From Steroidobacteraceae bacterium (GTDB taxonomy: Bacteria > Pseudomonadota > Gammaproteobacteria > Steroidobacterales > Steroidobacteraceae): a DNA stretch of 64,000 nt. A program made the translations under genes and the position numbers. Where the stretch lies: assembly GCA_035263105.1 (NCBI GenBank), contig DATFRO010000021.1, forward strand, positions 41,254 to 105,253. The letters run 5' to 3'. The stretch's first letter is position 1. Each line of letters begins with the position of its first letter. Below, one piece after another: positions 3,296 through 21,302 of this stretch. The notes beneath the pieces were generated by a model. The model worked only from the letters and a program-made list of their open reading frames with translations, made no database searches and had not been told where the DNA came from.

Positions 3296-3366
3296 AAGCA
3301 TGTCCTCGTTTTGCAATATTTACCTGGCGGCGCCGCGTACTGGTCGGTGCCTCGCAGGGGTTGCGG

Positions 3367-3382
3367 AGCAAGGGCCATGCCA
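3367..3382 (-). promoter_or_regulatory. sigma54 (-24/-12) promoter upstream of the EF-hand gene
   Basis: Minus strand reads TGGCAT-GGCCC-TTGCT, with GG-N10-GC spacing exact. It is intergenic, about 70 nt upstream of ATG 3295, and divergent from glrK. Confidence 0.65.
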
Positions 3383-3538
3383 CGCCGGGCGAAACTACTG
3401 GCTTCAAGCGCTTAGCCGCCGCTGAGCGCCGTGCGGCGTGTGCCGCGCGCCGCCGCAGCGTCGTCAACAGGCAACGCATTTGAACCGCGGAGCGCTTTGC
3501 GCAGTCCCATTGGCGCGAGGCGTGCAGGGAATCGGGTG

Positions 3539-4984
3539 ATGCGACGGCCGAGATCGATTGTCCGGCTGATACTGATCGGGTTCGCCGCCGTAGCCGTGCC
3601 GCTGATCGCGGCGGTGGTCACCGCCGTCGTGCAGGTGGACCGCCTCGCGCAGCGTAATCGCGCCGCGGTGCTCGATGCCGAGAACGCCACGCACGAGAGC
3701 CGTGCGCTGATCGAGTACCTCACCACCATGGAGCGCAGCCTCGGCCAATATGGAGTGTTTCGTGACCGGGATTTCTACCTGACGTACCTGGACGCACGGC
3801 GCGAATTCCAGTCGGCGGCGCAGCGGCTGGGTGCACTGAACCTGAATGCGATCCTGCGCCGCCAGCTCGGCGAGCTGGTGCAGTCGGAGGCCGAGCTCAA
3901 TCGCTCGGTGCTGACGCCGGGCGGCGAGCCGATCGACTCCGCCAGCCCGCGCGACACCGCCGATGCGTGGGCCGCACTCAACGCGCGGGCGCGTTCCATT
4001 CTTGCCGAGAGCAGCAAGCTGATCGAAAGCCATGCGAGCCGTGCCAAGGACATGTCGACCGATCTGCAACGCACCCTGCTGCTGCAGGCGGCCGCCGCCG
4101 TACCCGTGGCGGTGCTGCTCGCCATCGTGTTCGTCGTGCTGATCACGCGCCCACTGCGGCAGATCGAAAGCGAGATCCGGCGGCTCGGGTCCGGCGACTT
4201 CGCGGCGAGCGTCGCGGTGCGCGGCCCGCGCGACCTCGAGGAACTCGGCAGCCGCCTCGACTGGCTGCGCCGGCGCATCCTCGAGCTGGAGGAGCAGAAG
4301 GCGACGTTCCTGCGCCACATCAGCCACGAGCTCAAGACACCGCTCACGACCTTGCGCGAAGGGTCGGAACTGCTGCTCGACGATGACGCGCGCGGCCTCA
4401 ACGCGGAACAGCTCGAAATCGCCTACATCATGCGCGACAGCGGCGTGCAGCTGCAGCGCCTCATCGAGGACCTGCTCGAATTCGGGCGCACGCAGGTGCC
4501 GCGCGCCGGGGCGACACAACGCGCGCAGGTGGCGCTCGATGATGTGGTGCGCAGTGCGCTCGAGGGGCAGAGCCTGGTGAAGACCGCCAAGGCGCTCACC
4601 ATCGAGGCGCAGCTCGCACCCGCGGTCCTGCAGGGCGACCAGGGGCAGCTGCGCATCCTGGTCGACAACCTGCTGTCGAACGCCGTCAAGTACACGCCGG
4701 CGCACGGCCGCATCCTCGTGAGCCTCGCGAGGAACGATACCGACGTCACGCTCGAAGTCGCCGACAACGGGCCCGGCATCGATGCGGACGAGCGCGAGCG
4801 TGTGTTCGAGCCTTTCTACCAGGGCCGCGCGCCCTACCAGGGCCATGTGCAGGGCACGGGCCTCGGGCTCGCGATCGCGCGCCAGTACGCCGAAGCGCAC
4901 GACGGCTCGATCGACATCGCTGACTCTCCTCTCGGGCAGGGCGCCTGTGTGCGCGTGCGCTTTCGGCTCGCGCGGGCGGCATGA
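3539..4984 (+). CDS. glrK: sensor histidine kinase GlrK/QseE type (TM-HAMP-HisKA-HATPase)
   Basis: H-box FLRHISHELKTPLTTLREGSELLLDD closely parallels E. coli GlrK FLRHLSHELKTPLASMREGTELLADQ. The C-terminal G-boxes are present. Gene order kinase-lipoprotein-sigma54 regulator matches glrK-qseG-glrR. The ATG at 3539 is preferred to the upstream alternative start at 3431. Confidence 0.8.
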   Translation: MRRPRSIVRLILIGFAAVAVPLIAAVVTAVVQVDRLAQRNRAAVLDAENATHESRALIEYLTTMERSLGQYGVFRDRDFYLTYLDARREFQSAAQRLGALNLNAILRRQLGELVQSEAELNRSVLTPGGEPIDSASPRDTADAWAALNARARSILAESSKLIESHASRAKDMSTDLQRTLLLQAAAAVPVAVLLAIVFVVLITRPLRQIESEIRRLGSGDFAASVAVRGPRDLEELGSRLDWLRRRILELEEQKATFLRHISHELKTPLTTLREGSELLLDDDARGLNAEQLEIAYIMRDSGVQLQRLIEDLLEFGRTQVPRAGATQRAQVALDDVVRSALEGQSLVKTAKALTIEAQLAPAVLQGDQGQLRILVDNLLSNAVKYTPAHGRILVSLARNDTDVTLEVADNGPGIDADERERVFEPFYQGRAPYQGHVQGTGLGLAIARQYAEAHDGSIDIADSPLGQGACVRVRFRLARAA

Positions 4985-5572
4985 ATGAGTGCCGTGCGTC
5001 GCCTGTCGATCGGGTTCGCAACGCTGCTGCTCGCGGCGTGTCACTCGCATCCGCCGAAGTCGGATAAGCCCGAGCACGCCTCGAGCGAGATGGTGCTCGC
5101 CGGCCTCAGCAGCTATGCGCGGAACGTGCGCCAGGAAGATGACGCGGGACTCGCCGCCGAGAAGACGCGACTGGATGCGCTGCCCAAATCGGCGGCGCGC
5201 GATCTGCGGCTCGCGATGCTGCTCGACCAGGAACGGAGCGCGCTGTACGACCCGGGGCGCGCCTCGCAATTGCTCGACGATGCGGCGCATGCCAGCGCCG
5301 CGGAGCCCGCGGAGCGCGCCTTCGCGGACATGCTGCTCGCGACCGCGGGCGCCGAGCCGCGCTCCTGCAGCGAAACCGGTTTCACGCAGGACCTGGTGCA
5401 GAAGCTCGCGGACGAGGAGCAGCGGCGCACCGAGCTCACCACGCGACTCGAGAACACGCGCCAGGAGCTCGAGGCCGAGCGCACGCAGCGCGTGAAGCTC
5501 GAGAAGCAGCTCGAGGCGCTCAAGTCGATCGAAACGCAGATCAAGAACCGGGAGAACGATGCGGGGCACTGA
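4985..5572 (+). CDS. qseG: QseG/YfhG-like lipoprotein encoded between kinase and regulator
   Basis: Lipobox LLLAAC. The C-terminal coiled segment QLEALKSIETQIKNRE resembles E. coli QseG KLENLTDIERQLSTRK. Its position between glrK and glrR fits. It abuts the glrK stop and overlaps the glrR start by 14 nt. Confidence 0.65.
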   Translation: MSAVRRLSIGFATLLLAACHSHPPKSDKPEHASSEMVLAGLSSYARNVRQEDDAGLAAEKTRLDALPKSAARDLRLAMLLDQERSALYDPGRASQLLDDAAHASAAEPAERAFADMLLATAGAEPRSCSETGFTQDLVQKLADEEQRRTELTTRLENTRQELEAERTQRVKLEKQLEALKSIETQIKNRENDAGH

Positions 5573-6983
5573 AGTCAGCAGCCAGCCGGCGCGCATCCTG
5601 ATCGTCGACGACGACGTGAAGCTGCTGCGCCTGCTCGCGATCCGACTGCGGCGCGCCGGCTGGATCATTGAGACCGCTGAGGACGGCCGCCAGGCGCTCG
5701 CCGCGATCCCGGGCTTCCGCCCGCAAGTGGTCGTGACCGACGTGCGCATGGGCGGGATGGACGGCATGGCACTGTTCGAAGCGCTGCGTTCGCAGCACCC
5801 GACGCTCCCCGTGATCATTCTCACCGCGCACGGCACGATCCCGGACGCGGTCGACGCCGCGCAGCGCGGCGTCTTCGCCTACCTCACCAAGCCCTTCGAC
5901 AGCGAGCGGCTGACGGAAACGATCGGCAAGGCGCTGCGCGCGTCGGGCTCACAGGGCAACGGCGGTGGCGATGTCGCCGGCCAGTGGCGCGCCGAGATCG
6001 TCACCCGCAGCCCTGCAATGGAGGCACTGCTCGGCGCCGCTCGCAAGGTGGCGCACACCGATTCGAGCGTGCTGATCCAGGGCGAGAGCGGCACCGGCAA
6101 GGAATTGCTGGCGCGTGCCATTCACCGCGCCAGTCGCCGCCACGACCAGCCTTTCATCGCGGTGAACTGCAGCGCGATTCCCGAGGCGCTGTTCGAGTCG
6201 GAGTTCTTCGGCCATCGCAAGGGCTCCTTTACCGGCGCGATCGAGAGTCGCGTGGGCCTGATCCAGTCGGCGCACCAGGGGAGCCTCTTGCTGGATGAGA
6301 TCGGCGACATGCCGCTGACGTTTCAGTCGAAGCTCCTGCGCGCGTTGCAGGAGCGTGAAGTACGCCCGGTGGGCGCGATGGATCCGCTGCCGGTGGACGT
6401 GCGGGTGATCGCGGCGAGTCACCAGGACCTGGAGCTCGCGGTGCGCGAGCGGCGCTTTCGCGAGGACCTCTACTACCGCATCAACGTGGTGACGCTGGAG
6501 ATTCCCGCGCTCGGCTCGCGCCGCGAAGACATCCCGCTGCTCGCGACGCACTTCCTCGCCGCGATCCGCGCCAAGCTCGCCGATACCGCGGTCGACGTGA
6601 GCGGCTTCTCTTCGGAAGCCATGGAACTGCTGGTCTCCGCGCCCTGGCCCGGGAACATCCGCCAGCTCCGCAACGTCGTCGAACAATGCGTGGTGCTCGC
6701 CACCACGCCGCTGATCCCGGCCTCCCTGGTGCAGAAGGCCTTGCGCAGCAAGCCGCGCGAGTTCCTGCCGTTCGCCCGTGCGCGCGACAACTTCGAATTC
6801 GACTACCTCGTGAACCTGCTACAGATGACGCTCGGCAACGTCGCGCAGGCGGCGCGCCTCGCGGATCGCAATCGCTCCGAGTTCTACAAGCTCCTGCGCA
6901 AGCACAACCTCGATCCGCAGGTGTTTCGCAGCGACGAAGGCGCCGCGGCGCCTGGAAAAACCGACCGCCTGGAGCGGCAGTAA
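5559..6983 (+). CDS. glrR: sigma54-dependent response regulator GlrR/QseF (REC-AAA+-Fis HTH)
   Basis: The receiver segment ILTAHGTIPDAVDAAQRGVFAYLTKP is near-identical in pattern to E. coli GlrR ILTAHGSIPDAVAATQQGVFSFLTKP. It also has Walker A GESGTGKE, the GAFTGA-like loop GSFTGA and a C-terminal HTH. Confidence 0.85.
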   Translation: MRGTEVSSQPARILIVDDDVKLLRLLAIRLRRAGWIIETAEDGRQALAAIPGFRPQVVVTDVRMGGMDGMALFEALRSQHPTLPVIILTAHGTIPDAVDAAQRGVFAYLTKPFDSERLTETIGKALRASGSQGNGGGDVAGQWRAEIVTRSPAMEALLGAARKVAHTDSSVLIQGESGTGKELLARAIHRASRRHDQPFIAVNCSAIPEALFESEFFGHRKGSFTGAIESRVGLIQSAHQGSLLLDEIGDMPLTFQSKLLRALQEREVRPVGAMDPLPVDVRVIAASHQDLELAVRERRFREDLYYRINVVTLEIPALGSRREDIPLLATHFLAAIRAKLADTAVDVSGFSSEAMELLVSAPWPGNIRQLRNVVEQCVVLATTPLIPASLVQKALRSKPREFLPFARARDNFEFDYLVNLLQMTLGNVAQAARLADRNRSEFYKLLRKHNLDPQVFRSDEGAAAPGKTDRLERQ

Positions 6984-7000
6984 CTACATGTAGGAAGGAA

Positions 7001-7035
7001 GCGGACACCGTCCGCGGGAGCGAAGCGGTGTCCGC
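7001..7035. terminator. GC-rich hairpin between convergent glrR and a small ORF (bidirectional terminator candidate)
   Basis: GCGGACACC (7001-7009) pairs with GGTGTCCGC (7027-7035). It lies between the glrR stop (6983) and the stop of the minus-strand ORF (7049). Confidence 0.55.
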
Positions 7036-7048
7036 GATTCGGCTTCGA

Positions 7049-7240
7049 TCAGCCCGGCGGAGTGCCGGTCTCGTCGTCGTCCTCGTCCGACGACGGATTG
7101 CGACGCGGATCGCCCGGGTTGTTGCGCTTCCTGCGCTCTTCCTCTTCGCGCTCGCGCCGCGTCTGCTGGTCTCCACCACCCGGGGTGTTGCCCGGATTGT
7201 TGGGCTTCTGCGGGTTGTGCGTTGGATTCTGGTTCGCCAT
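7049..7240 (-). CDS. small (63 aa) highly hydrophilic, charged, probably disordered protein
   Basis: MANQNPTHNPQKPNNPGNTPGGGDQQTRREREEEERRKRNNPGDPRRNPSSDEDDDETGTPPG. It has a high-GC third-position codon pattern, a GGAG Shine-Dalgarno 8 nt before the ATG and a sigma54 promoter about 66 nt upstream. It is the C-terminal part of the 397-aa track ORF, whose remainder is antisense to the M48 gene. Confidence 0.55.
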   Translation of the reverse strand: MANQNPTHNPQKPNNPGNTPGGGDQQTRREREEEERRKRNNPGDPRRNPSSDEDDDETGTPPG

Positions 7241-7305
7241 GACAATTACTCCATTGTGTAACGGTTCCATTCCGGACTGTGCCTTCCGGTGGCACCGGGG
7301 AAACT

Positions 7306-7321
7306 TGCAGGGTCCGTGCCA
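7306..7321 (-). promoter_or_regulatory. sigma54 (-24/-12) promoter upstream of the 63-aa hydrophilic protein gene
   Basis: Minus strand reads TGGCAC-GGACC-CTGCA, GG-N10-GC exact, intergenic. Confidence 0.6.
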
Positions 7322-7432
7322 CGCATGCATTTGCCAACCGCGCTTCATTACAATCCGCAGCCTGCGGCGGTCATGGGAACCTGAACGTTGCGGACCGGCT
7401 CCAAAATAAGGGTACGAACAGTGGAGAGCGGA

Positions 7433-8248
7433 ATGAATCGAGTGAAGCGGATCGCGGTGCTGCTGCTTGCCGGAGGGGCACTGCTCGCCGGTTGCCAGAC
7501 CGTCCAGACCACCGCGCCCGGCGCAATCGGCATCGAGCGCAAGCAGCAGATGCTCGTGTCCGAGGAGCAGGTGGACCAGGCCGCGGCGCAGGCTTACGCG
7601 GGCGAACTGCAGAAGGCACGCGAGGCGGGCAAGCTCAACAGCAACCCGCAGGTCGTGCAGCGTGTGCGCACTGTCTCGGAGCGCCTGATCCCGCAGACGG
7701 CGACGTTCCGGCCCGACGCGCCCGGCTGGAAATGGGAAGTGAACGTACTCAGCACCAAGGAGCTCAACGCCTACTGCATGCCGGGCGGCAAGATCATGGT
7801 GTACACGGGGCTGATCGACCAGCTCAAGCTGAGCGACGATGAGCTCTCCGCGGTGATCGGCCACGAGATCGGGCACGCGCTGCGTGAGCACAGCCGCGAG
7901 CGCGTGTCGCGCGCCTACGCGCAACAGATCGCGCTCAGCGGCGTCGCGGCCGCCGCGGGACTGGGGCAGGGCACGCTCGATCTCGCCAACCAGATCGCCG
8001 ATGTCACCTTCCAGCTGCCACACAGCCGTGAACAGGAAGCCGAGGCGGATCGCATCGGCCTGGAACTGATGGCGCGCGCCGGCTACGACCCGCACGCGGC
8101 CATCAACGTGTGGAAAAAGATGGAACAGCAGAACCAGAGCTCGCCGCCGGAATTCCTGAGCACCCACCCTTCGAGCCAGTCGCGAATTTCCGACCTCGAA
8201 GCCGCGCTCCCGCGCGTGCTGCCGCTCTACCAGGCCGCGCATCGCTAG
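7433..8248 (+). CDS. M48-family zinc metallopeptidase lipoprotein (LoiP/YcaL-like)
   Basis: Lipobox LLAGC, zinc motif HEIGHALREH, and downstream EQEAEADRIGLELMARAGYDP typical of M48. The start at MNRVKR is preferred. Confidence 0.85.
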   Translation: MNRVKRIAVLLLAGGALLAGCQTVQTTAPGAIGIERKQQMLVSEEQVDQAAAQAYAGELQKAREAGKLNSNPQVVQRVRTVSERLIPQTATFRPDAPGWKWEVNVLSTKELNAYCMPGGKIMVYTGLIDQLKLSDDELSAVIGHEIGHALREHSRERVSRAYAQQIALSGVAAAAGLGQGTLDLANQIADVTFQLPHSREQEAEADRIGLELMARAGYDPHAAINVWKKMEQQNQSSPPEFLSTHPSSQSRISDLEAALPRVLPLYQAAHR

Positions 8249-8278
8249 GGTAGGTCTGTGCCGACCTGCTCACACTGA

Positions 8279-10411: not shown

Positions 10412-11174
10412 GCCGGCGCCGTACCCGCGGAGCGCCGCCGCCACTCACCGCGTGCAAGTCGCGACTTACAACATTCATCGCTGCGTGGGCGCCGACGGGC
10501 GTTGCGACCCGAGCCGCATCGCCTCGGTGATCGCCGAGCTCGATTGCGATGCCATCGGCCTGCAGGAAGTCGACAACACGCCGGGCCCGGCGCCGACCTC
10601 CATGCAGCTCGACTTCCTCGCCTCGGCCTGCGCCATGCGTGCGGTGGCGGGCTTGCGCATCCTGCGCCACCGCGGCCACTACGGAAATGCGCTGCTGACG
10701 CGCCACCCGGTGCGCTCCGTGCGGCGGCACGATCTGAGCTTCTCGTGGCGCGAGCCGCGCGGCGCACTCGACGTGGAACTGGATGTGCACGGCCGCCCGG
10801 CGCGCTTCATCGTCACGCATCTCGGGCTCACGCCCGGCGAACGCCGCCACCAGATGCGCAAGATCCTCGAGATCGTGGGCGACGTCGCGCAGCGTTCTCC
10901 GGTCGTGCTGCTCGGCGATATCAATGAGTGGCTGCCACTCGGCAAGCCGCTGCGCTGGCTGCATGCGCTCTTCGGCCGCCCGCCCGCGCCGCGCTCGTTC
11001 CCGTCGCTGTTACCGCTGTTCGCGCTCGACCGGATCTGGGCCAGCCCGCGTGCGAGCCTCCTCAGCGTGCGCGCGCATCGCTCGCGCGACTCACGCCTCG
11101 CGTCCGATCATCTGCCGGTGACCGCCACGCTGGAGGTGCCCGCGTCGGCCGCGGCGCAACCTCCGGATGACTAG
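10386..11174 (+). CDS. endonuclease/exonuclease/phosphatase (EEP) family protein
   Basis: VATYNIHRCVG ... GLQEVD ... SDHLPV motifs characteristic of the EEP fold. It overlaps the end of the PLD gene by 26 nt. Confidence 0.8.
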   Translation: MKARPRDSEPAPYPRSAAATHRVQVATYNIHRCVGADGRCDPSRIASVIAELDCDAIGLQEVDNTPGPAPTSMQLDFLASACAMRAVAGLRILRHRGHYGNALLTRHPVRSVRRHDLSFSWREPRGALDVELDVHGRPARFIVTHLGLTPGERRHQMRKILEIVGDVAQRSPVVLLGDINEWLPLGKPLRWLHALFGRPPAPRSFPSLLPLFALDRIWASPRASLLSVRAHRSRDSRLASDHLPVTATLEVPASAAAQPPDD

Positions 11175-11440
11175 CGCGCTCTGCCGCGCCGGATCAGGTT
11201 GACGATGGCGAGCAGGATGATCGCGCCGAGGAGCGAGATCAGCAGCCCGCTGAAGGAGAAGTCGCCCTGGTTGATGGTGCCGGTGCCGAAGAGCGGTGCC
11301 AGGAGCCACCCGCCGAGCACCGCGCCCACGATGCCGACCACGATGTTGAGGAAGATGCCCTGCTGAGCGTCGGTGCGCATGAAGAGGCTGGCGAGCCAGC
11401 CCACCAGACCACCGACCACGAGCCAGATGATGATTGCCAT
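11171..11440 (-). CDS. GlsB/YeaQ/YmgE family stress-response membrane protein (transglycosylase-associated)
   Basis: 89 aa: IIIWLVVGGLVGWLASLFM ... IVVGIVGAVLGGWLL, the typical Gly-zipper pattern of this family. Confidence 0.85.
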   Translation of the reverse strand: MAIIIWLVVGGLVGWLASLFMRTDAQQGIFLNIVVGIVGAVLGGWLLAPLFGTGTINQGDFSFSGLLISLLGAIILLAIVNLIRRGRAR

Positions 11441-11459
11441 GGATCACCTCGCGATGAAA

Positions 11460-11723
11460 TCAGAAATCGGCTACCGACATTCCCGTCCCGCCCTGCAACA
11501 GCAGGTGCGGATCGTCGAACAGTCGCGGATCATCCTGGCGCAGCACCGCGGCGGTGATGTCGTTGCGCACGATGCGCTCGCAGTAAGCCGGTTGCTGAGT
11601 CGCGGTCAGATCCGCGGACTGTGCGCGTGGCGTTGGTTCGTGCGTGCCCCCTGCGCCCTGGAGCGCACCGCCGGACTGCAACGCGAGCACGATGAAAGCC
11701 GAGATTGACGCCGCCTTTTTCAT
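11460..11723 (-). CDS. small hypothetical protein with N-terminal signal-like segment
   Basis: MKKAASISAFIVLALQSGGALQG.... It has a GGGAGAG Shine-Dalgarno 7-8 nt before the ATG at 11723 and lies immediately upstream of the GlsB-like gene (probable two-gene operon). Confidence 0.5.
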   Translation of the reverse strand: MKKAASISAFIVLALQSGGALQGAGGTHEPTPRAQSADLTATQQPAYCERIVRNDITAAVLRQDDPRLFDDPHLLLQGGTGMSVADF

Positions 11724-11765
11724 TTCGCTGCTCTCCCTGGTCGCTGTTTCCATCACCTGAAGATC

Positions 11766-11781
11766 TGCAATACGTGTGCCA
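11766..11781 (-). promoter_or_regulatory. sigma54 (-24/-12) promoter upstream of the small secreted protein / GlsB-like operon
   Basis: Minus strand reads TGGCAC-ACGTA-TTGCA, a perfect consensus. It is 43 nt upstream of ATG 11723. Confidence 0.75.
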
Positions 11782-11942
11782 GTGCGCCGGCGCCGCTCGC
11801 ACGAGCGCTGGCGCGCCATTACGCGCAAGCTTTGCCCCCGTCGCCGGAACTAATTGCAATGGAGCCTGCGTGCTGAAACGCAGCGCCGGCTCGCACGGTC
11901 TTGCTCGCACTCAGATCGTGAGCTGCGCGCGGCATTCGACAC

Positions 11943-11958
11943 TGGCATGTCGATTGCA
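11943..11958 (+). promoter_or_regulatory. orphan sigma54 (-24/-12) promoter with no recognisable plus-strand gene downstream
   Basis: TGGCAT-GTCGA-TTGCA, GG-N10-GC exact. It is divergent from the 11766 promoter. The next convincing gene downstream (ferritin-like, 12171-12797) is on the opposite strand. Confidence 0.55.
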
Positions 11959-12170
11959 GTCGCTTGCACCATGGGGCCCAGAGCGGCCCGGTGGACACAA
12001 GCCCGCGAAAGCCGCAGCAGCGTTGCCTGTCAGGGACAGAGGCGACTCGCAACGTGGCCGAAGCGCAGCGTCGGGTGGGTTGCGGACCGATCCGCCCGCG
12101 TCTGCCGGTCGCGCTGGGCTCCAACCACGTCTCGAGCCACGCGCAAGCAAAGAGAGATCAGGTGCTGCGG

Positions 12171-12797: not shown

Positions 12798-13022
12798 GGG
12801 GGTTCCCTCCCGTCATGGACCGATACGGCGGCGCTGCCGGCGTTCGCCGGCAAGGCCGCCCAGAGGAGCCGCTTTTCCCGCCCGGCACCTGGTCAGCTCT
12901 TCTGGCCGTGACCAGCGCCGTGTCCGCGTCCTGCGCATCCTTGTCGGCAAATTCCTCGGGGCTTCCAGTTGCCCTAGATCCGCCGGCACCAGGCGGGAAA
13001 GCGACAACGCGTGAAGTCGAAG

Positions 13023-13187
13023 CTACGTGCGTCGTGCCACGCTCATGACGAAGGTCACGACCGCGCCGATGAGGAACAGCACGAACAGGATCTTGGCGAA
13101 TCCCGCCGCGCCGGCCGCGATGCCGCCGAAGCCGAGGAAGGCCGCGATCAGCGCCACGATCAGGAACACGAGTGCGTAATACAGCAT
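13023..13187 (-). CDS. DUF1328 (UPF0391, YtjA-like) small membrane protein
   Basis: [47 protein letters not shown], the canonical sequence pattern of this family. The internal Met start is preferred. Confidence 0.85.
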
Positions 13188-13320
13188 GGTTTTCCCCGCA
13201 TCGACGTTCGATTGACTTGATTGGTACGATGCGACAAGGCACACCCGCCATGCCGTCGGCAGTCCACGACAGTCCCTGTAGGACGATGCTCACAATGCGT
13301 ATCCGCGAGATTTCCCGCGC

Positions 13321-14739
13321 ATGATCTGGCGCGACATCTTCAAGGTGTGGCTGCCGGTGCTGCTGCTCGCGGCGCTGCTCGCGGGCCTGTACCTGTTGTT
13401 CGAGCAGCGCTACTCGCGCCTCAACGAAGTGAGCGTGCGCGTGCTGCAGATCCAGGAACGGCAGAAGCTCCTGTCGCGCTTCATGCAGCTGGTGGTCGAT
13501 GCCGAGACCGGCCAGCGCGGCTTCCTCCTGACCGAACAGCCCGAGTACCTCGAGCCGCTGTTGAGCGCGGCGCCGCGCATCCACGAGGTGCTGGTGCAAC
13601 TCGCCGAGAGCTACCAGCGCGAAGGCGTGCCGCTCAACCCGGTGATCGAGCTCGGCGCTCTCACCCGGCAACGTTTCGAGGTTCTCACCGTCGCGTTGCG
13701 CCACTACGTGCAGTGGCGCAGGACCGGCGCGGCGCCGGTCCTGCAGGGCACCGGCAAGCAGGTCATGGACCAGTTGCGCGGCCGGGTCACGGAGCTCGAG
13801 ACACTGGAGTCCGAGCAGTTCGTGACCTCACTCGCACAGTGGCAGAGGGACCTGCGCACCACGCGCTGGAGCATGGCGGGCGCAACGCTCCTCAACGTAC
13901 TGCTGATCGTTGCGCTCGGCTCGTTCCTGCTGCGCGATCTCAACCGGCGCAGCCGCGAAGCCGAGTACCTCAAGCGCATGGTGGATGCGCGCACACGCGA
14001 GCTGGTGTCGCTCTCCAATCACCTGCAGGAGGTCACCGAGCGCGAGAAGCAGTCGCTGGCGCGCGAGCTGCACGATGCGCTGGGGAGCCTGCTGGTTGCG
14101 ACCAAGATGGACGTGGCGTGGCTGCACGCGCGCCTCAGGAGCCTCGATCCGGACCTGGAGGTGCGCTGGAGCCGCATCCAGGACTCGCTGGATCGCGGCG
14201 TCGATCTCAAGCGTCGCGTGGTCGAGTCGCTCCGTCCGACGCTGCTCGACAACATGGGCCTGTACGCCGCGTTGCGCTGGCAGTTCGACGAGACCTGCGG
14301 GCGCAACAACATCAAGTGCACCTGCCGCCTGCCCGAGGAGGAGCCGCAGTTCAGCAATGACGCGGCCATCGCGCTGTTCCGCGTGGCGCAGGAATCCTTC
14401 ACCAACATCCTGCGTCACTCGGAGGCGAGCGAGGCGGAGCTCGAGGTCAAGGTGGAGGATGGAGAGTTCGTGCTCACCATCGACGACAACGGCCGCGGCC
14501 TGCTGCTGCGCGATGATGCGACGCCGCGCCACGGGCTTGCCGGCATGCGCCATCGCGTGAACGCGCTCGGCGGCCGCTGCGAAATCGCGCGGCGCGAGGC
14601 TGGCGGAACCCGGGTGCGCGTGTCGATTCCGCTCGCCAACGTGCAGGAGGCCGCGGCGCAGCCGCTGCCGGCACAGATCGTCGGCGTGCGCAGCCGCGCG
14701 GGCTCCGCGCCTCAGGCGGGCACGAGCTCCGGCGAGTGA
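13321..14739 (+). CDS. CHASE3-domain sensor histidine kinase, NarX/HisKA_3 type
   Basis: CHASE3 signature DAETGQRGFLLTEQPEYLEP, a second TM, the H-box LARELHDALGSLL and a HATPase C-terminus (DDNGRG ... GLAGMRHR). Confidence 0.85.
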   Translation: MIWRDIFKVWLPVLLLAALLAGLYLLFEQRYSRLNEVSVRVLQIQERQKLLSRFMQLVVDAETGQRGFLLTEQPEYLEPLLSAAPRIHEVLVQLAESYQREGVPLNPVIELGALTRQRFEVLTVALRHYVQWRRTGAAPVLQGTGKQVMDQLRGRVTELETLESEQFVTSLAQWQRDLRTTRWSMAGATLLNVLLIVALGSFLLRDLNRRSREAEYLKRMVDARTRELVSLSNHLQEVTEREKQSLARELHDALGSLLVATKMDVAWLHARLRSLDPDLEVRWSRIQDSLDRGVDLKRRVVESLRPTLLDNMGLYAALRWQFDETCGRNNIKCTCRLPEEEPQFSNDAAIALFRVAQESFTNILRHSEASEAELEVKVEDGEFVLTIDDNGRGLLLRDDATPRHGLAGMRHRVNALGGRCEIARREAGGTRVRVSIPLANVQEAAAQPLPAQIVGVRSRAGSAPQAGTSSGE

Positions 14740-15122
14740 CGCTGGCGCGGCGGGCCGCCGCGCAACGTGTCGATCAGCTGCGGCAGGCGCTCGAAATCGC
14801 GCGCCTTGTCGAGGAAGTAATCCGCGCCCAGGGCGAGCGCCTGGCGGCGGTATTCCGGCAGATCGTAGTTGGTGAAGATGATCACGATCGGACGCTCTTC
14901 GAGCTTGCTGAGCGCGCGCAGCACGCCGAAGCCGGTGCCGCGATTCAAGCGCAGATCGAGCACCACGACGTCGATTCCGCCCAGCTCAATCGCCTCGATT
15001 GCCTTGGTCTCGCGATCGATCGTGTCGATGATGCGGATCGCGCGCAACTCGCACAACGACTCCCTGAGGCGCTCCGCCACGATCGGTGAATCCTCGACGA
15101 TCAGGATTCGCAGGATGTCCAT
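14712..15122 (-). CDS. single-domain response regulator (receiver only)
   Basis: MDILRILIVEDSP ... VVVLDLRL ... IIFTN ... ADYFLDK. Its 3-prime end overlaps the convergent kinase gene by 28 nt. Confidence 0.8.
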   Translation of the reverse strand: MDILRILIVEDSPIVAERLRESLCELRAIRIIDTIDRETKAIEAIELGGIDVVVLDLRLNRGTGFGVLRALSKLEERPIVIIFTNYDLPEYRRQALALGADYFLDKARDFERLPQLIDTLRGGPPRQRHSPELVPA

Positions 15123-15270
15123 TTCACTGCCACTCACGGAAATACTCTGCTGCTTGCACGTCGCATTCTCCCCGCAACGCCCGAGTCCCGGTATCAGACT
15201 TCGCTGACGCTGCTCCTACAAATCTCCCTTCGACACCGGCACATGAACGAATCGGCGCTTTCGGGCTCCC

Positions 15271-15903
15271 TCAGTTGATGAGCTGGTTGCGTAATGCATA
15301 CGAAGTGAGATCGGCATTGGTCTCGAAACTCATCTTCTGCAGGATGCGGCTGCGGTACGTGCTCACCGTCTTGACGCTCAGGCACAGCTCCGTCGCGATC
15401 TCCGAGACCGCGCGCCCGGCCGCGAGCTTGCAGAACACCTGGAATTCACGTTCAGAGAGGCGCGCGTGCAGCGGCTTGTCGGCCTCGCCGTCGAGCTCGC
15501 CCACCAGCTGTTCAGCGAGCGTCGAGCTCACGTAGCGCCGGCCCTGCAGGACTGCGCGCACCGCGCGCAGCAGCTCCTCGGGCGCGGTGCCCTTCTCGAT
15601 GAAGCCGCTCGCGCCGGCGCGCAGCACGTTGAGCGCGTACTGCCGTTCAGGGTAGCCGCTGAGCACCAGCACGCGGGTGCGGTCGTGCACCGAGCGGATC
15701 TGCTGCAGGATGTCGATGCCGCTGCGATCGGGCATGCCGATGTCGAGGATCACCAGGTCCCAGTTCTCGGCGCGCAGGCGATCGAGCGTCTCGCGCCCGG
15801 TTGCAGCTTCGCCGATCGCGCTGATGGCGCGGTCTTCGACCAGAAACTGCTTGAGACCGGCGCGAACTACCGCATGGTCGTCGGCGATCAGAACTCGTGC
15901 CAT
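15271..15903 (-). CDS. NarL/FixJ (LuxR-type HTH) response regulator
   Basis: MARVLIADDHAVVRAGL ... LVILDIGMPD ... the C-terminal LSEREFQVFCKLAAGRAVSEIATELCLSVKTVSTYRSRILQKM. Confidence 0.9.
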   Translation of the reverse strand: MARVLIADDHAVVRAGLKQFLVEDRAISAIGEAATGRETLDRLRAENWDLVILDIGMPDRSGIDILQQIRSVHDRTRVLVLSGYPERQYALNVLRAGASGFIEKGTAPEELLRAVRAVLQGRRYVSSTLAEQLVGELDGEADKPLHARLSEREFQVFCKLAAGRAVSEIATELCLSVKTVSTYRSRILQKMSFETNADLTSYALRNQLIN

Positions 15904-15926
15904 GGACTTCCCATTTCAGGTGGTCC

Positions 15927-16967
<1,041 letters not shown>

Positions 16968-17211
16968 TGCTTCCCCTAATGTCGATTCGTCGGACCGCGA
17001 GCGAATGCAATTTCTGCATCGGCCCTGGGGAAGCTTTGTAACGTATTGCATCCCGGGGCTGGAGCGGCGCTCACTGATCCCAGCCTAGGAATAATTGCAA
17101 CGCGCGTGTCGGTGTTTGTCTGACAAGAGCGCCCCAATCCGCTGTTTCCTGTGCCTTTGCGCACCGTGCGGGAGCCGTCGCGCTGCGCAGTGCACAACGC
17201 CATCCAGCCCG

Positions 17212-17227
17212 TGGCATACGCCTTGCA
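17212..17227 (+). promoter_or_regulatory. sigma54 (-24/-12) promoter upstream of a lipoprotein gene, divergent from the receiver-less activator
   Basis: TGGCAT-ACGCC-TTGCA, GG-N10-GC exact, 67 nt upstream of ATG 17294. Confidence 0.75.
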
Positions 17228-17293
17228 CCTCGCTATTCGGTTCGCGCGCCGCAAGTGACGCGCGCCGTGAGGCTGTGTGCCGGGAAGGTATTG

Positions 17294-17707
17294 ATGAAGA
17301 CCACATCTGTGAATCTGACGATCGTGAATCTGGCAATGGCGGCGCTGCTATCGGTGTTCGCGCTGGCGGGCTGCAAGCGCGCCGAGAGCCCTGCACATAC
17401 GCAGCAGGATGTTCAGCAGGCTGAACAGCAGGCCAACGAAAAAGTCGCGGAAGCGCGCACCGACCAGGCCAAGCAGGACGCAGAGGCCGGCAAGGACGTG
17501 CGCAACGAAGAGCAGGATGCTGCGAAGAAAGAAGCGAGCGCCGCCTATGACGTCGCGGTCGCGCAGGCGGAGGGCGATCACAAGGTCGCCATCCAGAAGT
17601 GCGAGTCACAGAGTGGCGCGGCGCGTGATGCCTGCAAGGAGCGTGCGGACACGGCGCTCGAGCAGGCCAAGTCGCAGGCCGAAGCGCGGCGCGACGCGGC
17701 GCGTTGA
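17294..17707 (+). CDS. charged helical lipoprotein (Ala/Glu/Lys/Gln-rich with a C-x10-C pair)
   Basis: Lipobox FALAGC, then QQDVQQAEQQANEKVAEARTDQAK ... KCESQSGAARDACKERAD. GGAAGG Shine-Dalgarno. Confidence 0.7.
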   Translation: MKTTSVNLTIVNLAMAALLSVFALAGCKRAESPAHTQQDVQQAEQQANEKVAEARTDQAKQDAEAGKDVRNEEQDAAKKEASAAYDVAVAQAEGDHKVAIQKCESQSGAARDACKERADTALEQAKSQAEARRDAAR

Positions 17708-17800
17708 TTTCCCGCAACGCGTGATCGATCACCAGGTGCGATCGATCACGCGACACACCGAGCTGATTCTCCCGTACTCAATCCCAAGAGGAGCGAACCG

Positions 17801-18019
17801 ATGAAGACCAAATACCTCATGATCGCAGCCCTGCTGTCGCTCTTCGCGCTGGCAGGCTGCAAGCGCCCGGAGGCGACTCCGCCGGAAACCCCCGCGCCGA
17901 GCTCGCAGCCCGAGACACCGCCGCCGGCACAGGAATCTCCGCCGCCCGCCGACCAGGCAACGCCGCCGTCCGACCAGACGCCGCCGCCTGACAACAGCGG
18001 GCAGCCCCCGCAGCAATAG
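17801..18019 (+). CDS. small proline-rich lipoprotein
   Basis: MKTKYLMIAALLSLFALAGCKRPEAT.... The signal peptide and lipobox are nearly identical to those of the preceding lipoprotein (LLSVFALAGCKR). AGAGGAG Shine-Dalgarno. Confidence 0.65.
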   Translation: MKTKYLMIAALLSLFALAGCKRPEATPPETPAPSSQPETPPPAQESPPPADQATPPSDQTPPPDNSGQPPQQ

Positions 18020-18180
18020 CGCGTGAACGCAGCCGGGACGGATGTCAGCCGACCTCCGTCCCTGCTTGCGGCTCAGTCCTACGGACGTGGCCATGCGCCA
18101 TGCGCTGAACTAGTCGCCGAAACTGCCGCAGTGTGTATTGACGCTTACCAACAGGTTCAGTAACGACCAGGAGACTTGTG

Positions 18181-18756
18181 ATGAGACGATCATTCACTCT
18201 CAGTACGGCAACGGCGCTGATCAGCGCCCTGTTGATCGTGGCGTGCTCGTCGACACCGACACAACGCAGCGCCGGCGAGACCGTCGATGACGCCACCCTG
18301 ACCGGCAAGGTCAAGGCCGCGCTCGTCGACAACGACCTCGTCAAGGCGGGCGAAGTCAACGTCGACTCGTACCGCGGCGTGGTGCAGCTCAACGGCTTCG
18401 TCGGCACGCAGGCGGAGAAGAGCGCGGCGAGCAAGGCGGCGCAGTCGGTGAAAGGCGTGAAGGAAGTGCGCAACAACCTCGAGGTCAAGTCGGTCGCGAT
18501 GGCCAATGCCGATGCGGATCGCTCCGCGGGGCAGGTCGTGGACGATGCGACCATCACCGCGAAGGTGAAGACGGCGCTGATCGAGGACAAGACGACCAAG
18601 GCCCACCAGATCAACGTCGACACCAGTTCCGGCATCGTGGAGCTCGGTGGCTTCGTCGACTCGCAGGAGGCCAAGGACCGCGCCGGTGAAGTGGCGCGTT
18701 CGGTGAAGGGCGTGAAGGACGTGAAGAACGACCTGCAGCTCAAGCCGAAGCCCTGA
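18181..18756 (+). CDS. BON-domain (OsmY-like) periplasmic lipoprotein, two BON domains
   Basis: Lipobox LIVAC. Twice repeated DDATLTGKVKAAL ... VDSYRGVVQLNGFV ... AKSVKGVKEVRNNL. Confidence 0.85.
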   Translation: MRRSFTLSTATALISALLIVACSSTPTQRSAGETVDDATLTGKVKAALVDNDLVKAGEVNVDSYRGVVQLNGFVGTQAEKSAASKAAQSVKGVKEVRNNLEVKSVAMANADADRSAGQVVDDATITAKVKTALIEDKTTKAHQINVDTSSGIVELGGFVDSQEAKDRAGEVARSVKGVKDVKNDLQLKPKP

Positions 18757-18794
18757 TCGCGACAGCAACTCACAAAGACGATGTCGAAACTCGA

Positions 18795-18824
18795 GCCGGC
18801 GGGGTCGAAGAGGGCCCCGCCGGC
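18795..18824 (+). terminator. intrinsic-terminator-like hairpin after the BON gene
   Basis: GCCGGCGGGG (18795-18804) pairs with CCCCGCCGGC (18815-18824) and is followed by TT. Its presence argues that the AI-2E gene starts at 18886, not 18781. Confidence 0.55.
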
Positions 18825-18885
18825 TTCGACGTTATGGGGTAGCCAGCGCGTGGCGCCCGCGTCTCACGAGCCGGTGCGGGAGGGT

Positions 18886-20079
18886 TCGATGCAAGAGATC
18901 GACCGGACGTTTTCCGCTCCACGACAACGCAATGCGGGCAAGGTCGCACTGATCGTTCTTGCCGTGATTGCAGTGATCGCGGCGTTGCACCTGGGGCGCG
19001 AAGTGACGATGCCGATCGGGCTGGCCTTGTTCTTCGCCGTGATTCTCTCGCCTGCTGTCGAGCGTTTGCGCCGCATGGGCCTGCGCAATGGCATCGCGGC
19101 GGCGCTGGTGATGCTCATGGTCGTTGCGGCGCTCGCCACGCTGGTGCAATTCATCAAGGACCCGGCGCGCGCCTGGTTCGAGCGCGCGCCGAGCGTGCTC
19201 ACCGACGTCGAGAAAAAGCTGCGACCGCTCCAGCAGGTCGCGACGCGCATCGATAGGGTCGCGGCGCAGGCGGAACGCGTGACCGGGGCGACAACGGCGT
19301 CGACGCCCAACAACACGGGCGACTACCAGGGGCTGCTGCGCAAGGCGCCCGCCGTGGTGTTGCCGGTGGTCGGCGTCTTTTTCCTGACCTTCTTTCTCCT
19401 CGCCTCCGGGCCGCCGCTGCTCGCTCGCGTAGCGACCGGACGACGACGCACCGGCTCGGCGCGCCACGGCGTGATCGTCGTGGAGAGCGCGCGGCGCGAG
19501 CTGTCGCGCTTTCTCGGCACCATCGCACTCATCAACGTCGGCCTCGGACTTGTGACGACGGGCATTGCCTACGCGTTCGAGCTGCCCACCCCGGTGCTCT
19601 GGGGCGTGATGGCGGCGGTGCTGAACTTCATTCCATACGCCGGTTCAGCAACGACACTCACCGTCATCACGATCGTTGCGATCATCACGCACGACACGCT
19701 GACGCCCGCGGTCGGAGTGGCGCTGTCCTACCTCACGGCCGCCACCATCGAGGGACAGCTGGTGCAGCCGCTCGCCCTCGGCCGGCGCCTCGCGCTCAGC
19801 CCGCTGATCGTGTTCCTCGGCCTGTGGGTGTGGGGCTGGATCTGGGGCATCGCGGGCCTGCTGCTCGCGACGCCGATCCTGGTGACGATCAAGGCGGTGA
19901 GTTGTCAGATCAGTAGTTGGGGCCCGTTGACGGAATTCCTGAGTCCGTCGGCGGCGCCCGCCATTACCTCGAGCGCGCGGGCGTGGCGACGCGCGCGTCG
20001 ACGGCGACGTGTGCCACGGACAACGGAATCCGCCGCGCTCGCGGCGGCGGAAAGTGAATCGGAGACGACCCTCGTCTGA
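18886..20079 (+). CDS. AI-2E family transporter (PerM/YhhT-like permease)
   Basis: Multi-TM protein with the family-typical ...FIPYAGS... and ...LGLWVWGWIWGIAGLLLATPI... segments. GGAGGG Shine-Dalgarno before ATG 18886. Confidence 0.8.
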   Translation, partial: SMQEIDRTFSAPRQRNAGKVALIVLAVIAVIAALHLGREVTMPIGLALFFAVILSPAVERLRRMGLRNGIAAALVMLMVVAALATLVQFIKDPARAWFERAPSVLTDVEKKLRPLQQVATRIDRVAAQAERVTGATTASTPNNTGDYQGLLRKAPAVVLPVVGVFFLTFFLLASGPPLLARVATGRRRTGSARHGVIVVESARRELSRFLGTIALINVGLGLVTTGIAYAFELPTPVLWGVMAAVLNFIPYAGSATTLTVITIVAIITHDTLTPAVGVALSYLTAATIEGQLVQPLALGRRLALSPLIVFLGLWVWGWIWGIAGLLLATPILVTIKAVSCQISSWGPLTEFLSPSAAPAITSSARAWRRARRRRRVPRTTESAALAAAESESETTLV

Positions 20080-20125
20080 ACGAAGGCAAGGACTCGCCGG
20101 ATCTTGAAGCGCAAGGAGAGCAATC

Positions 20126-20716
20126 ATGCAGCAGAGAGCAGCGGTACAACGTGACACGTCGGTGACCTACAAGGTCCGTGAGTTCAATTTCTCGCGCGTC
20201 GAGGGCATTTCCAGCGAGGCGCTGCAGGATCACCTGACGCTCTACAAGGGCTACGTCGAGAACACGAACCGGCTGCTCAAGGAAATCGAACATGAGGGCG
20301 GCAAGGACGCCGAGCATCGCCTCGCGTTCGAGTTCAACGGCATGAAGCTGCACGAGCTGTTCTTCGAGACGCTCGGCGGGCCGGGCTCGGCGATGCGAAC
20401 CTCGGGCGTGCTGGCCGAGGCAATGGACATCAGCTACGGCGGCACGAAGGGCTGGCGCGACCGGTTCCTCGCGGTCGCCAGCACGCGCGGCATCGGCTGG
20501 GTGATGAGCGCGCGCGAGGTGGCGACCAACCGACTGCTCACGTTCTGGATCGACGAGCATCACTTCGGCCTGCCGGCGAACCTGCAACCGGTGATCCTGC
20601 TTGACTGCTGGGAGCACGCCTATCTCAAGGACTTCGGCGTGAAGGGTCGCGAGGAGTTCGTCGAGACGGTGCTCCACAACTTGAACTGGAGCGTGATCGA
20701 GAAGCGCTGCAGCTGA
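20126..20716 (+). CDS. Fe/Mn-family superoxide dismutase
   Basis: All four metal ligands appear in the expected order (DHL, KLHELFF, DCWEHAY). The N-terminal helical and C-terminal alpha/beta layout fits. Confidence 0.75.
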   Translation: MQQRAAVQRDTSVTYKVREFNFSRVEGISSEALQDHLTLYKGYVENTNRLLKEIEHEGGKDAEHRLAFEFNGMKLHELFFETLGGPGSAMRTSGVLAEAMDISYGGTKGWRDRFLAVASTRGIGWVMSAREVATNRLLTFWIDEHHFGLPANLQPVILLDCWEHAYLKDFGVKGREEFVETVLHNLNWSVIEKRCS

Positions 20717-20725
20717 CGGTCGCTC

Positions 20726-21241
20726 TTACAAGACCGCCTTCGTCATGTAGTCGACCGCGTTCTTCACCGACTGATCCGAGAGATCGGGACGCCCGCCGCG
20801 CGGCGGCATGACGCCCCTCGTTCCCTGGAAACCGCTGAGGGCGTGCGCGTACAGCACGCCCTTGCCCTTCGCGATCCGCCGGCTCCAGGCGTTCGGGTCA
20901 CCGAACTTCGGCGCGCCCGCCAGCCCCGAGCCGTGGCACGCGACGCAGGTCGACTGGTAGACGTCGCTCCCGTTCAGGGTGGTGCTCGCCGGACGGGCCG
21001 CCACCGCCACGGTGGAGGAGCCTTCCGACGGCGGCGTAGGCATTCCACTGATCGCGAGGCGAGCGAACGGCGCGGTGCGCTCGGCAACGGCCGCGAGGCG
21101 AGCGGGGTCATCCTTCAATATCCGTTGGTCGCTGCGGTGACCGATGATGCGTGCGGTCACGAAGAAGCCGAGGATGACGGCGTGCAGCACCACGGCGAGG
21201 ATCATGAAGCGGGTCCAGAAGCGTGCGTCCTGTGAACTCAT
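20726..21241 (-). CDS. membrane-anchored c-type cytochrome (cytochrome c5-like)
   Basis: N-terminal TM MILAVVLHAVILGFFV, heme motif CVACHG, and downstream GVMPPRGG providing the Met ligand. Confidence 0.8.
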   Translation of the reverse strand: MSSQDARFWTRFMILAVVLHAVILGFFVTARIIGHRSDQRILKDDPARLAAVAERTAPFARLAISGMPTPPSEGSSTVAVAARPASTTLNGSDVYQSTCVACHGSGLAGAPKFGDPNAWSRRIAKGKGVLYAHALSGFQGTRGVMPPRGGRPDLSDQSVKNAVDYMTKAVL

Positions 21242-21254
21242 GACCGGGGATACA

Positions 21255-21270
21255 AGCAATCCATGTGCCA
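21255..21270 (-). promoter_or_regulatory. sigma54 (-24/-12) promoter-like element directly abutting the cytochrome c gene start
   Basis: Minus strand reads TGGCAC-ATGGA-TTGCT, GG-N10-GC exact, intergenic. However the -12 element is only 14 nt from ATG 21241, implying a very short leader or use of the Met at 21205. Confidence 0.4.
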
Positions 21271-21302
21271 GTCGCACGGCGCGGGTTGCTTGAGTCGCGG
21301 GC

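Follow-up and report, generated by a model that had tools for sequence, protein, structure and literature searches.

Sigma-54 holoenzyme forms a closed complex at its promoters and fires only when an AAA+ activator makes contact through its GSFTGA loop. In a 64,000-nt stretch from a Steroidobacteraceae bacterium (C21:41254-105253 of a 3.86-Mb, 129-contig genome with 67% G+C that is about 95% complete; hereafter, the window), six intergenic sequences resembling sigma-54 (-24/-12) promoters, S1 to S6, lie within 18 kb that also hold the genes of two such activators, the enhancer-binding proteins EBP1 and EBP2. The locus raises the question of whether these six sequences are promoters and, if they are, whether a single regulator governs them all, as an initial annotation had suggested in proposing one envelope/stress regulon. 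Judging from sequence and its conservation, S1 to S6 behave as real sigma-54 promoters within a genus-conserved island of envelope and stress genes. The explanation that we consider likely for the whole is a functional sigma-54 island with two local activator circuits.

Six sigma-54 promoter sites within 18 kb

We scanned both strands with the strict pattern TGGCAY-N5-YTGCW and also gave the sites matrix scores. The six sites had been correctly located, and all match the pattern exactly: S1 (3367-3382, minus strand; TGGCATGGCCCTTGCT), S2 (7306-7321, minus strand; TGGCACGGACCCTGCA), S3 (11766-11781, minus strand; TGGCACACGTATTGCA), S4 (11943-11958, plus strand; TGGCATGTCGATTGCA), S5 (17212-17227, plus strand; TGGCATACGCCTTGCA), and S6 (21255-21270, minus strand; TGGCACATGGATTGCT). 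The window holds seven matches in total against 0.38 expected from dinucleotide shuffles (0 of 100 shuffles reached seven), in agreement with the earlier estimate that such a motif is rare by chance. The seventh match, at 47839-47854 on the plus strand, was rejected as a promoter: it lies within a coding gene, no downstream start occurs within 500 nt, its matrix score of 18.0 is the lowest (S1 to S6 score 20.4 to 25.2), and coding matches occur about as often as composition predicts. It is probably a chance match. Given its coding location and lowest score, the claim that no other intergenic site of such quality exists in the window was correct.

A genome-wide motif scan, which had been proposed as a check on the annotation, returned 29 strict matches. 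Of these, 20 or 21 lie in intergenic DNA, which makes up roughly 8.7% (about 9%) of the genome by a gene map drawn with a simple codon-bias caller (3,423 genes, 91% coding). The nine coding matches fit the number of about 11 predicted from base composition by an arithmetic estimate, and thus the whole excess of the motif is intergenic. Six of the 21 intergenic matches fall inside an 18-kb segment whose share of the intergenic DNA is 1% (binomial P = 4.8e-8), which bears out the reported concentration of sites in one part of the window; clustering by length gives P = 4.5e-9, or about 1e-6 when corrected for all 18-kb windows.

The genome has one intact rpoN, eight sigma-54-type activators, and one NtrX-like activator. 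Two of the eight lie inside the window, as had been reported, namely EBP1 (5559-6983, plus strand) and EBP2 (open reading frame [ORF] 15927-17051, minus strand), and both carry the Walker A motif GESGTGKE and GSFTGA, a variant of the GAFTGA loop. Elsewhere in the genome, intergenic matches precede a PrkA gene and a type IV pilin gene adjoining a PilR-like activator. The motif also precedes a PII-like gene (identified from N-terminal residues only), the genes of two PEP-CTERM proteins and a sugar transferase, and those of a second secreted EF-hand protein, a DUF3309 membrane peptide, and a Gcw_chp protein; a PrsR-type activator scoring above its curated cut-off is also present in the genome.

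The genes downstream of the sites had been described correctly: an EF-hand protein at S1, a 63-aa hydrophilic protein at S2, a secreted protein plus a Transgly_assoc (GlsB/YeaQ) protein at S3, lipoproteins at S5, and cytochrome c at S6. The placement of five of the six sites before genes also stands, with S6 only 14 nt from its start codon. The label of orphan given to S4 does not, since a conserved, structured RNA of about 155 nt appears to start there. The fit of leaders and Shine-Dalgarno sequences noted for four sites was found at S1, S2, S3, and S5, where leaders of roughly 31 to 55 nt carry GGAG-type sites; the S1 leader is about 55 nt long, and its Shine-Dalgarno sequence is GAGG.

We compared the syntenic stretches of six congeneric species and of two other genera; several of these relatives are incomplete metagenome bins. 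Coding DNA of these relatives is about 75% identical, and their intergenic DNA is mostly unalignable. Conservation was measured over eleven specified core positions against the 60 nt upstream and the 40 nt downstream. Across S1 to S5, core identity was 0.94 to 1.00, compared with 0.21 to 0.60 upstream and 0.26 to 0.53 downstream (3 to 9 species). S5 was found in 8 of 8 relatives examined, another genus included, with a core identity of 0.95 between flanks of 0.31 and 0.47, and S3 was kept in six relatives (1.00 versus 0.35 and 0.26). S1 was kept in three species (G008, G004, and G006; 0.95 versus 0.60 and 0.41) and S2 in two (G010 and G006; 0.94 versus 0.21 in the upstream flank), with S2 and its 63-aa gene missing from the syntenic stretches of G008 and G004. 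S4 was kept in four species, its 16-mer being identical in G008, G004, and G011 and different by one base in G001, and was missing in G010 and G006. We judge the promoters to be real because of the intergenic enrichment, the orientation and spacing, the islands of conservation at S1 to S5, the intact rpoN and activators, and the textbook targets elsewhere in the genome.

Upstream sites and the two activators

Clear upstream footprints were found at S1, S3/S4, and S5, and each is different. S1 and S2 flank a QseE-QseG-QseF-like operon (3431-6983, plus strand), S1 pointing away from the kinase gene at one end and S2 lying beyond the EBP1 gene at the other. The operon encodes a HAMP histidine kinase (3431-4984), a lipoprotein (4985-5572), and EBP1 (5559-6983). 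EBP1 is a REC plus AAA+ activator with GSFTGA; it scores 568 bits against the GlrR model NF011695, below the cut-off of 763, and this is its best model by 160 bits (NtrC, 404). The operon lipoprotein is 195 aa long with an LAAC lipobox, and neither a family match nor detectable QseG homology was found for it. About 85 nt upstream of S1, an imperfect palindrome, GCGTTGCC-N4-GACGACGC (3458-3477), is a candidate activator site; it reads AGCGTTGCC-N4-GACAACGCT in relatives, has no closer match elsewhere in the genome, and does not have the TGTC-N10-GACA form of a GlrR box. Boxes of the GlrR type were considered at S1 and S2 and are absent there, the only TGTC...GACA element being at S5 with an 11-nt spacing. 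A second GlrR-like activator gene occurs at C44:90992-94523, behind two genes on the same strand; its product scores 616 bits to GlrR, closer than EBP1.

EBP2 (15927-16967, minus strand) is a sensor-less sigma-54 activator, with about 32 residues before an AAA+ core bearing GSFTGA and with an HTH_8 domain. Its start, ATG 16967, was placed by eye from a conserved Shine-Dalgarno sequence and ATG; on the longest ORF, which reaches 17051, Pfam places Sigma54_activat at residues 61-226 and HTH_8 at 324-364. Against the PspF model TIGR02974 it scores 284.9 bits, below the cut-off of 443.55. A NarL-type regulator (15271-15903, minus strand) and a stand-alone receiver (14712-15137, minus strand) follow EBP2 on the same strand, and a CHASE3/HisKA_3 kinase (13321-14739, plus strand) is convergent with them, by Pfam assignment. 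This four-gene set is kept in G019, a relative from a sister genus that carries the core module and also retains S5 with its lipoprotein and BON genes. The G019 genome is complete on one contig, and its source is probably a cultured isolate. In G001, a sigma-54 promoter (L007 12751-12766, minus strand; TGGCATACGAGTTGCT) stands directly before a gene for a CsbD-looking protein (MNWDRIEGNWQQAKGKVKQRWGKLTDDQ...), which sits between the CHASE3 kinase and the NarL-type regulator; the CsbD-type label was read from its sequence only.

EBP2 and S5 share a regulatory region at 17005-17160 that contains TGCAATTTCTGCAT, CTTTGTAACGTAT, CTGGAGCGGCG..CACTGATCC..CTAGGA, TGTCGGTGTTTGTCTGACA (17107-17125), and an IHF-like site, the last a match at about -70 read by eye. 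Alignment of this region across nine species in two genera returned the blocks TGCAATTTCTGCAT, CTTTGTAAC, and CTGGAGCGGCG..CACTGATCC..CTAGGA. The TGTCGGTGTTTGTCTGACA block, about 105 nt before S5, reads TGTCGGTGTyTGTCyGACA across species. We infer that EBP2 would bind within 17005-17160 and activate S5, and that EBP1 would serve S1. A near-match to the S5 site with two mismatches, at C104:5912, was rejected as a second copy, as it has no nearby sigma-54 promoter.

The back-to-back promoters S3 and S4 are separated by 161 bp, in which two boxes (11820-11865) are conserved, one CGCAAGCTTTGCG-like (CGCAA-N3-TTGCG) and the other GGAACTAATTGCAAT. GCAATT, a rare sequence between genes (0.12 per 260 nt of intergenic DNA), lies upstream of S3/S4, of S5, and of two further sigma-54 sites in this genome. 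No upstream footprint could be resolved at S2, for which three sequences were available, or at S6, which has no orthologous site. Two 8-mers shared between upstream regions, AAGCTTTG and TAATTGCA, were rejected as activator sites because they are not conserved cores in relatives.

Because S1, S3/S4, and S5 have their own upstream sites and none is common to all, at least two circuits are likely. The initial annotation was right about a sigma-54-controlled envelope/stress set; a single regulon is not supported. In the model that we propose, the sigma-54 holoenzyme would bind each TGGCAY-N5-YTGCW as a closed complex, and a hexameric AAA+ activator bound about 70 to 200 bp upstream would trigger firing through its GSFTGA loop. 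In the first circuit, the QseE-QseG-QseF-like operon, through EBP1, would serve S1 and possibly S2. In the second, EBP2 would bind the TGTCGGTGTTTGTCTGACA region and drive the divergent S5, and, if a paralogous island found in sister species is a guide, it may also serve S6 and S3/S4. Given that EBP2 has no sensory domain, its output would probably depend on how much EBP2 is synthesized and/or on the CHASE3 kinase, the NarL-type regulator, and the lone receiver, as in HrpX/HrpY-HrpS. S4 would make a structured RNA of about 155 nt, and S6 a nearly leaderless cytochrome c mRNA.

The paralogous island (L040:5400-12500, from G002:C77; L041, from G001:C1:532000-538000; and L042, from G005:C285) is a second module in which an EBP2 paralog (68% identical) is followed by a lone receiver (62% identical) in G001, G002, and G005. 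The G001 and G002 copies of the island hold four sigma-54 promoters in a stretch of 6 kb, and their targets are BON-AI-2E genes, a CBS-cytochrome c operon, an SOD-like gene, and an orphan RNA. The promoter divergent from the EBP2 paralog keeps the same block order as the S5 region, including TGTCGGyGTTyGTCCTACA. On the short G005 contig L042, three of these promoters are present, plus one of its own before the receiver gene (L042:2085-2100, minus strand; strong; TGGCACGGAGATTGCT). This last promoter would make the receiver a target of the activator as well as its possible partner.

These sister islands, with four promoters around a single EBP2-type activator and no EBP1 near, favor an alternative in which S1 to S6 and the promoters of other small proteins form one regulon with EBP2 as a general-stress master and EBP1 playing no part. 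The coherent, general-stress-like gene content points in the same direction, as does the rare GCAATT box, which is found in the S3/S4 and S5 regions and at two promoters of the paralogous island. However, the conserved TGTCGGTGTTTGTCTGACA site is unique to S5, S1 has a different palindrome and adjoins EBP1, and pairwise upstream comparison yields no shared element. We consider a single regulon under EBP2 quite unlikely.

The distinct upstream site of each region could also mean that the promoters are real but unrelated, each answering to a different activator, some of them encoded elsewhere (e.g., the unassigned NtrC-type regulators at C21:14204 and on C42), with their proximity reflecting only the habit of stress genes of sitting in variable islands. 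In keeping with this, S2 and S6 come and go among species together with their genes, and other sigma-54 promoters of similar small proteins lie far from activator genes. On the other hand, the density of intergenic sites described above, beside two of the eight activators, argues against mere coincidence, as do the synteny of the island, which is held at about 75% DNA identity, and the paralogous island, which repeats the combination of an activator and several promoters. We therefore regard unrelated promoters as an unlikely explanation, if a somewhat better one than the single regulon.

Several observations nevertheless weigh against our preferred reading of two local circuits, as do some features of S6 given below. 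No upstream element common to the six sites emerged from k-mer sharing, fuzzy genome scans, or all-against-all local alignment of 20 upstream regions, and the S5 19-mer TGTCGGTGTTTGTCTGACA occurs only once in the genome. The TGTC-N10-GACA consensus of enterobacterial GlrR boxes (PMC3045617) was found at neither S1 nor S2. In G010, whose genome is only 85% complete, the EBP1 operon is absent from the locus and the best match to EBP1 is only 56% identical, yet S2 and the 63-aa gene are retained, so S2 is probably not strictly EBP1 dependent. Upstream of S5-lipoprotein homologs in other Steroidobacteraceae genera, different elements and no sigma-54 site were found, and wider conservation by way of the lipoprotein was rejected on that ground. 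Finally, the gene calls of the codon-bias caller are crude.

The predicted S4 transcript, S6, and the island's cargo

The S4 site is a candidate promoter of a genus-restricted small RNA. No credible ORF was found downstream of it. About 155 nt past S4 (11970-12127, plus strand, ending ...CUGGGCUCCAACCA) are conserved in four genomes of the genus, those of G008, G004, and G011 among them, with indels that are not multiples of three. The stretch ends about 45 nt ahead of the stop codon of a convergent ferritin-like gene. The predicted fold has a long closing stem, starting a few bases after the predicted transcription start, that encloses two hairpins, and its minimum free energy is -87.2 kcal/mol compared with -72.4 ± 4.0 for shuffles (z = -3.67). 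Compensatory change was seen in 3 of 49 consensus pairs, which is weak evidence from four sequences only. No U-rich terminator was found in the RNA, and a search of positions 1-24000, the S4 RNA included, returned no Rfam family and no GlmY-like RNA. By BLAST, the RNA occurs in only 4 of 151 genomes of the family. Strong intergenic sigma-54 motifs with no close downstream ORF also occur at C107:7819-7834 (plus strand) and C114:20341-20356 (minus strand) and may head further small RNAs.

The paralogous island has an orphan promoter of its own, TGGCACAGCGyTTGCA (within L040:5408-5600, L041:8228-8420, and L042:458-650). A conserved non-coding stretch of about 165 nt with an ACCA tail comes after it and abuts the 3' end and stop codon of a convergent SOD-like gene. 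This RNA folds on the plan of the S4 RNA, a closing stem plus two hairpins. MAFFT misaligns the two RNAs, and their homology is unproven because the S4 covariance model does not detect the paralogous RNA.

ATG 21241 lies 14 nt after the GC of S6, and nearly all cytochrome c homologs align from residue 2 or 3, which identifies this ATG as the start of the cytochrome c gene. If transcription starts at the usual distance of about 12 nt after the GC, the leader would be about 3 nt long and the S6 mRNA nearly leaderless. The features of S6 that count against a functional promoter are that such a leader is unusual for a sigma-54 promoter, that an in-frame GTG at 21277 would put S6 inside a longer cytochrome c ORF, and that no other genome compared has S6 at this position. 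Both S6 and the cytochrome c gene are missing at the syntenic site in all relatives compared, which have only an analogue: the closest cytochrome c homologs (49 to 52% identity; G002, G005, and G001) are the second gene of the CBS-cytochrome c operon, headed by AGGCATGGATCTTGCT.

It is conceivable, then, that S6 and/or S4 are non-functional, S6 being a relic or lying within an ORF that starts at GTG 21277, and S4 a decaying duplicate of S3. The short distance from S6 to the ATG, its overlap with the longer ORF, and its lack of a syntenic counterpart fit such a view, as do the lack of an ORF behind S4 and the loss of S4 from G010 and G006. However, the matrix score of S6 (24.7) is among the highest in the genome, and the orthologs of its cytochrome c gene in the three sister species belong to an operon headed by a sigma-54 promoter. 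The S4 16-mer, identical in three species, is followed by a conserved and unusually stable structure, and in G001 the equivalent of S4 heads a protein-coding gene instead. Non-functional S6 or S4 sites thus seem rather improbable to us, and the reading of all six as promoters is retained.

The envelope/stress character assigned to the cargo was confirmed by gene families. S1 precedes the gene of a secreted EF-hand calcium-binding protein (2930-3301, minus strand; Pfam EF-hand_5 and EF-hand_1, with a visible signal peptide), a paralog of which, at C76:8507-8870, is also behind a sigma-54 promoter; a small secreted protein at C17:45352 may be a third such case. S2 precedes the gene of a highly charged, hydrophilin-like protein of 63 aa (7049-7240, minus strand, by translation) that is probably disordered, belongs to no Pfam or NCBIfam family, and keeps the pattern NNPTHNP...REEEERR in its orthologs in G010 and G006. 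The S3 operon (11171-11723, minus strand) encodes a small secreted protein (11460-11723), whose signal peptide and start codon are conserved, and a GlsB/YeaQ-type membrane protein (11171-11440; Pfam Transgly_assoc). S6 precedes the gene of a membrane-anchored c-type cytochrome (20726-21241, minus strand; Pfam Cytochrome_CBB3). No sigma-54 site of their own was found for the island's ferritin/Dps-like gene, UPF0391 (YtjA-type) peptide, M48 peptidase, and PLD-DedA fusion.

The S5 cargo (17294-20716, plus strand) begins with a charged helical lipoprotein (17294-17707) and a proline-rich lipoprotein (17801-18019). Further on the same strand lie genes for a BON/OsmY-like lipoprotein (18178-18756), an AI-2E-family transporter (18781-20079), and an SOD-like protein (20126-20716), into which the S5 transcript probably continues; in the paralogous island, the equivalent promoter is directly ahead of BON-AI-2E. 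Among the lipoprotein homologs of other genera (L012-L016 and L017-L022), one group shares a conserved GTAGGAAAGCCCTTACAG...GGGAATTGAGTAGCG about 60 to 200 nt upstream of position 6001, and the second group has an inverted repeat, GGTAGG...CTGACGG...CCTACC, in that region.

Comparison with known systems

PspF, HrpR/S, and LafK are class Ic sensor-less activators (Francke et al., PMC3162934). EBP2 resembles PspF of the enterobacterial phage-shock (psp) system in having little beyond an AAA+ core and an HTH domain, in a gene divergent from a sigma-54 target, in a shared intergenic region with candidate activator sites and an IHF-like site, and in the envelope/stress nature of the cargo. However, it falls below the PspF cut-off, its gene adjoins those of the NarL-type regulator, lone receiver, and CHASE3 kinase, several promoters that differ in their upstream sites lie around it, and no PspA or psp family was found among the island proteins.

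In Enterobacteriaceae, the QseE(GlrK)-QseG-QseF(GlrR) system activates glmY and rpoE from sigma-54 promoters (PMC6075780, PMC3045617). The EBP1 operon has the same order of kinase, lipoprotein, and REC-AAA+ activator, along with adjoining sigma-54 promoters and an envelope theme, whereas EBP1 scores below the equivalog cut-off, its proposed targets are an EF-hand protein and the 63-aa protein, and there is no GlmY-like RNA. At S3/S4, the closest parallels are zraP-zraSR and hyc-hyp, divergent sigma-54 promoter pairs that share one enhancer. S3 and S4 are likewise back to back with two conserved boxes between them, with the difference that one arm would yield a non-coding RNA.

In Dickeya/Erwinia, the two-component system HrpX/HrpY activates the gene of the sensor-less activator HrpS (PMC2494611). 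The EBP2 locus recalls this HrpX/HrpY-HrpS-HrpL pathway in that a two-component system stands beside a sensor-less activator whose amount, rather than its modification, is the likely control point. HrpY is a NarL/FixJ-type regulator. Conserved boxes are also found immediately ahead of the EBP2 start. The two arrangements differ in that the EBP2 gene comes first in its operon, an extra stand-alone receiver is conserved, and the predicted output is stress and envelope proteins plus an RNA rather than the sigma factor of a secretion system.

The gene content of the island is closest to that of the RpoS, EcfG, and SigB general stress regulons, with BON/OsmY, YeaQ/GlsB, YtjA (UPF0391), Dps/ferritin-like, SOD-like, DUF3309, and small hydrophilic proteins, and CsbD in G001. 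However, the promoters here are of the -24/-12 type that need ATP-driven activators, and not every stress-type gene of the island has a sigma-54 site. No rpoS equivalog was detected in the genome: the best match to TIGR02394, a 646-aa RpoD-like frame, scored 272.7 bits against a cut-off of 378.7, and the next, an RpoH-like frame, scored 138 bits. Given that the genome is 95% complete, the absence of rpoS is probable but not certain. To our knowledge, little is known of stationary-phase and desiccation protection in RpoS-less bacteria, many Xanthomonadales-like and other soil lineages among them.

A bolder hypothesis, which we find doubtful yet less so than the alternatives weighed above, is that sigma-54 took over the general stress response in an RpoS-less lineage. 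Activators of the EBP2 type would then fire a battery of OsmY-like, YeaQ-like, CsbD, SOD-like, hydrophilin, and cytochrome genes under CHASE3-NarL-receiver control; the battery would include a pair of structured small RNAs placed tail to tail with the ferritin- and SOD-like genes that they may control, and the lone receiver, conserved next to both activator paralogs, would supply in trans the receiver domain that the activator lacks. A general role of sigma-54 in governing the cell exterior has been proposed in print (PMC3162934), and a literature search on sigma-54 in Steroidobacter, on CsbD and general stress, and on RpoS-less lineages returned nothing pertinent.

In summary, the promoters and activators are of ordinary textbook kinds, and the cargo and wiring are apparently undescribed. 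What appears to be new is that sigma-54 promoters precede general-stress-type genes in a genome where no rpoS equivalog was detected, and that these genes are tied to a sensor-less activator and a lone receiver. The island offers a concrete wiring of six promoters, two activators, and mapped candidate binding sites. It also contributes a candidate small RNA dependent on sigma-54, a predicted sigma-54 transcript of the rare leaderless sort, and a sensor-less activator and lone receiver whose pairing is conserved.

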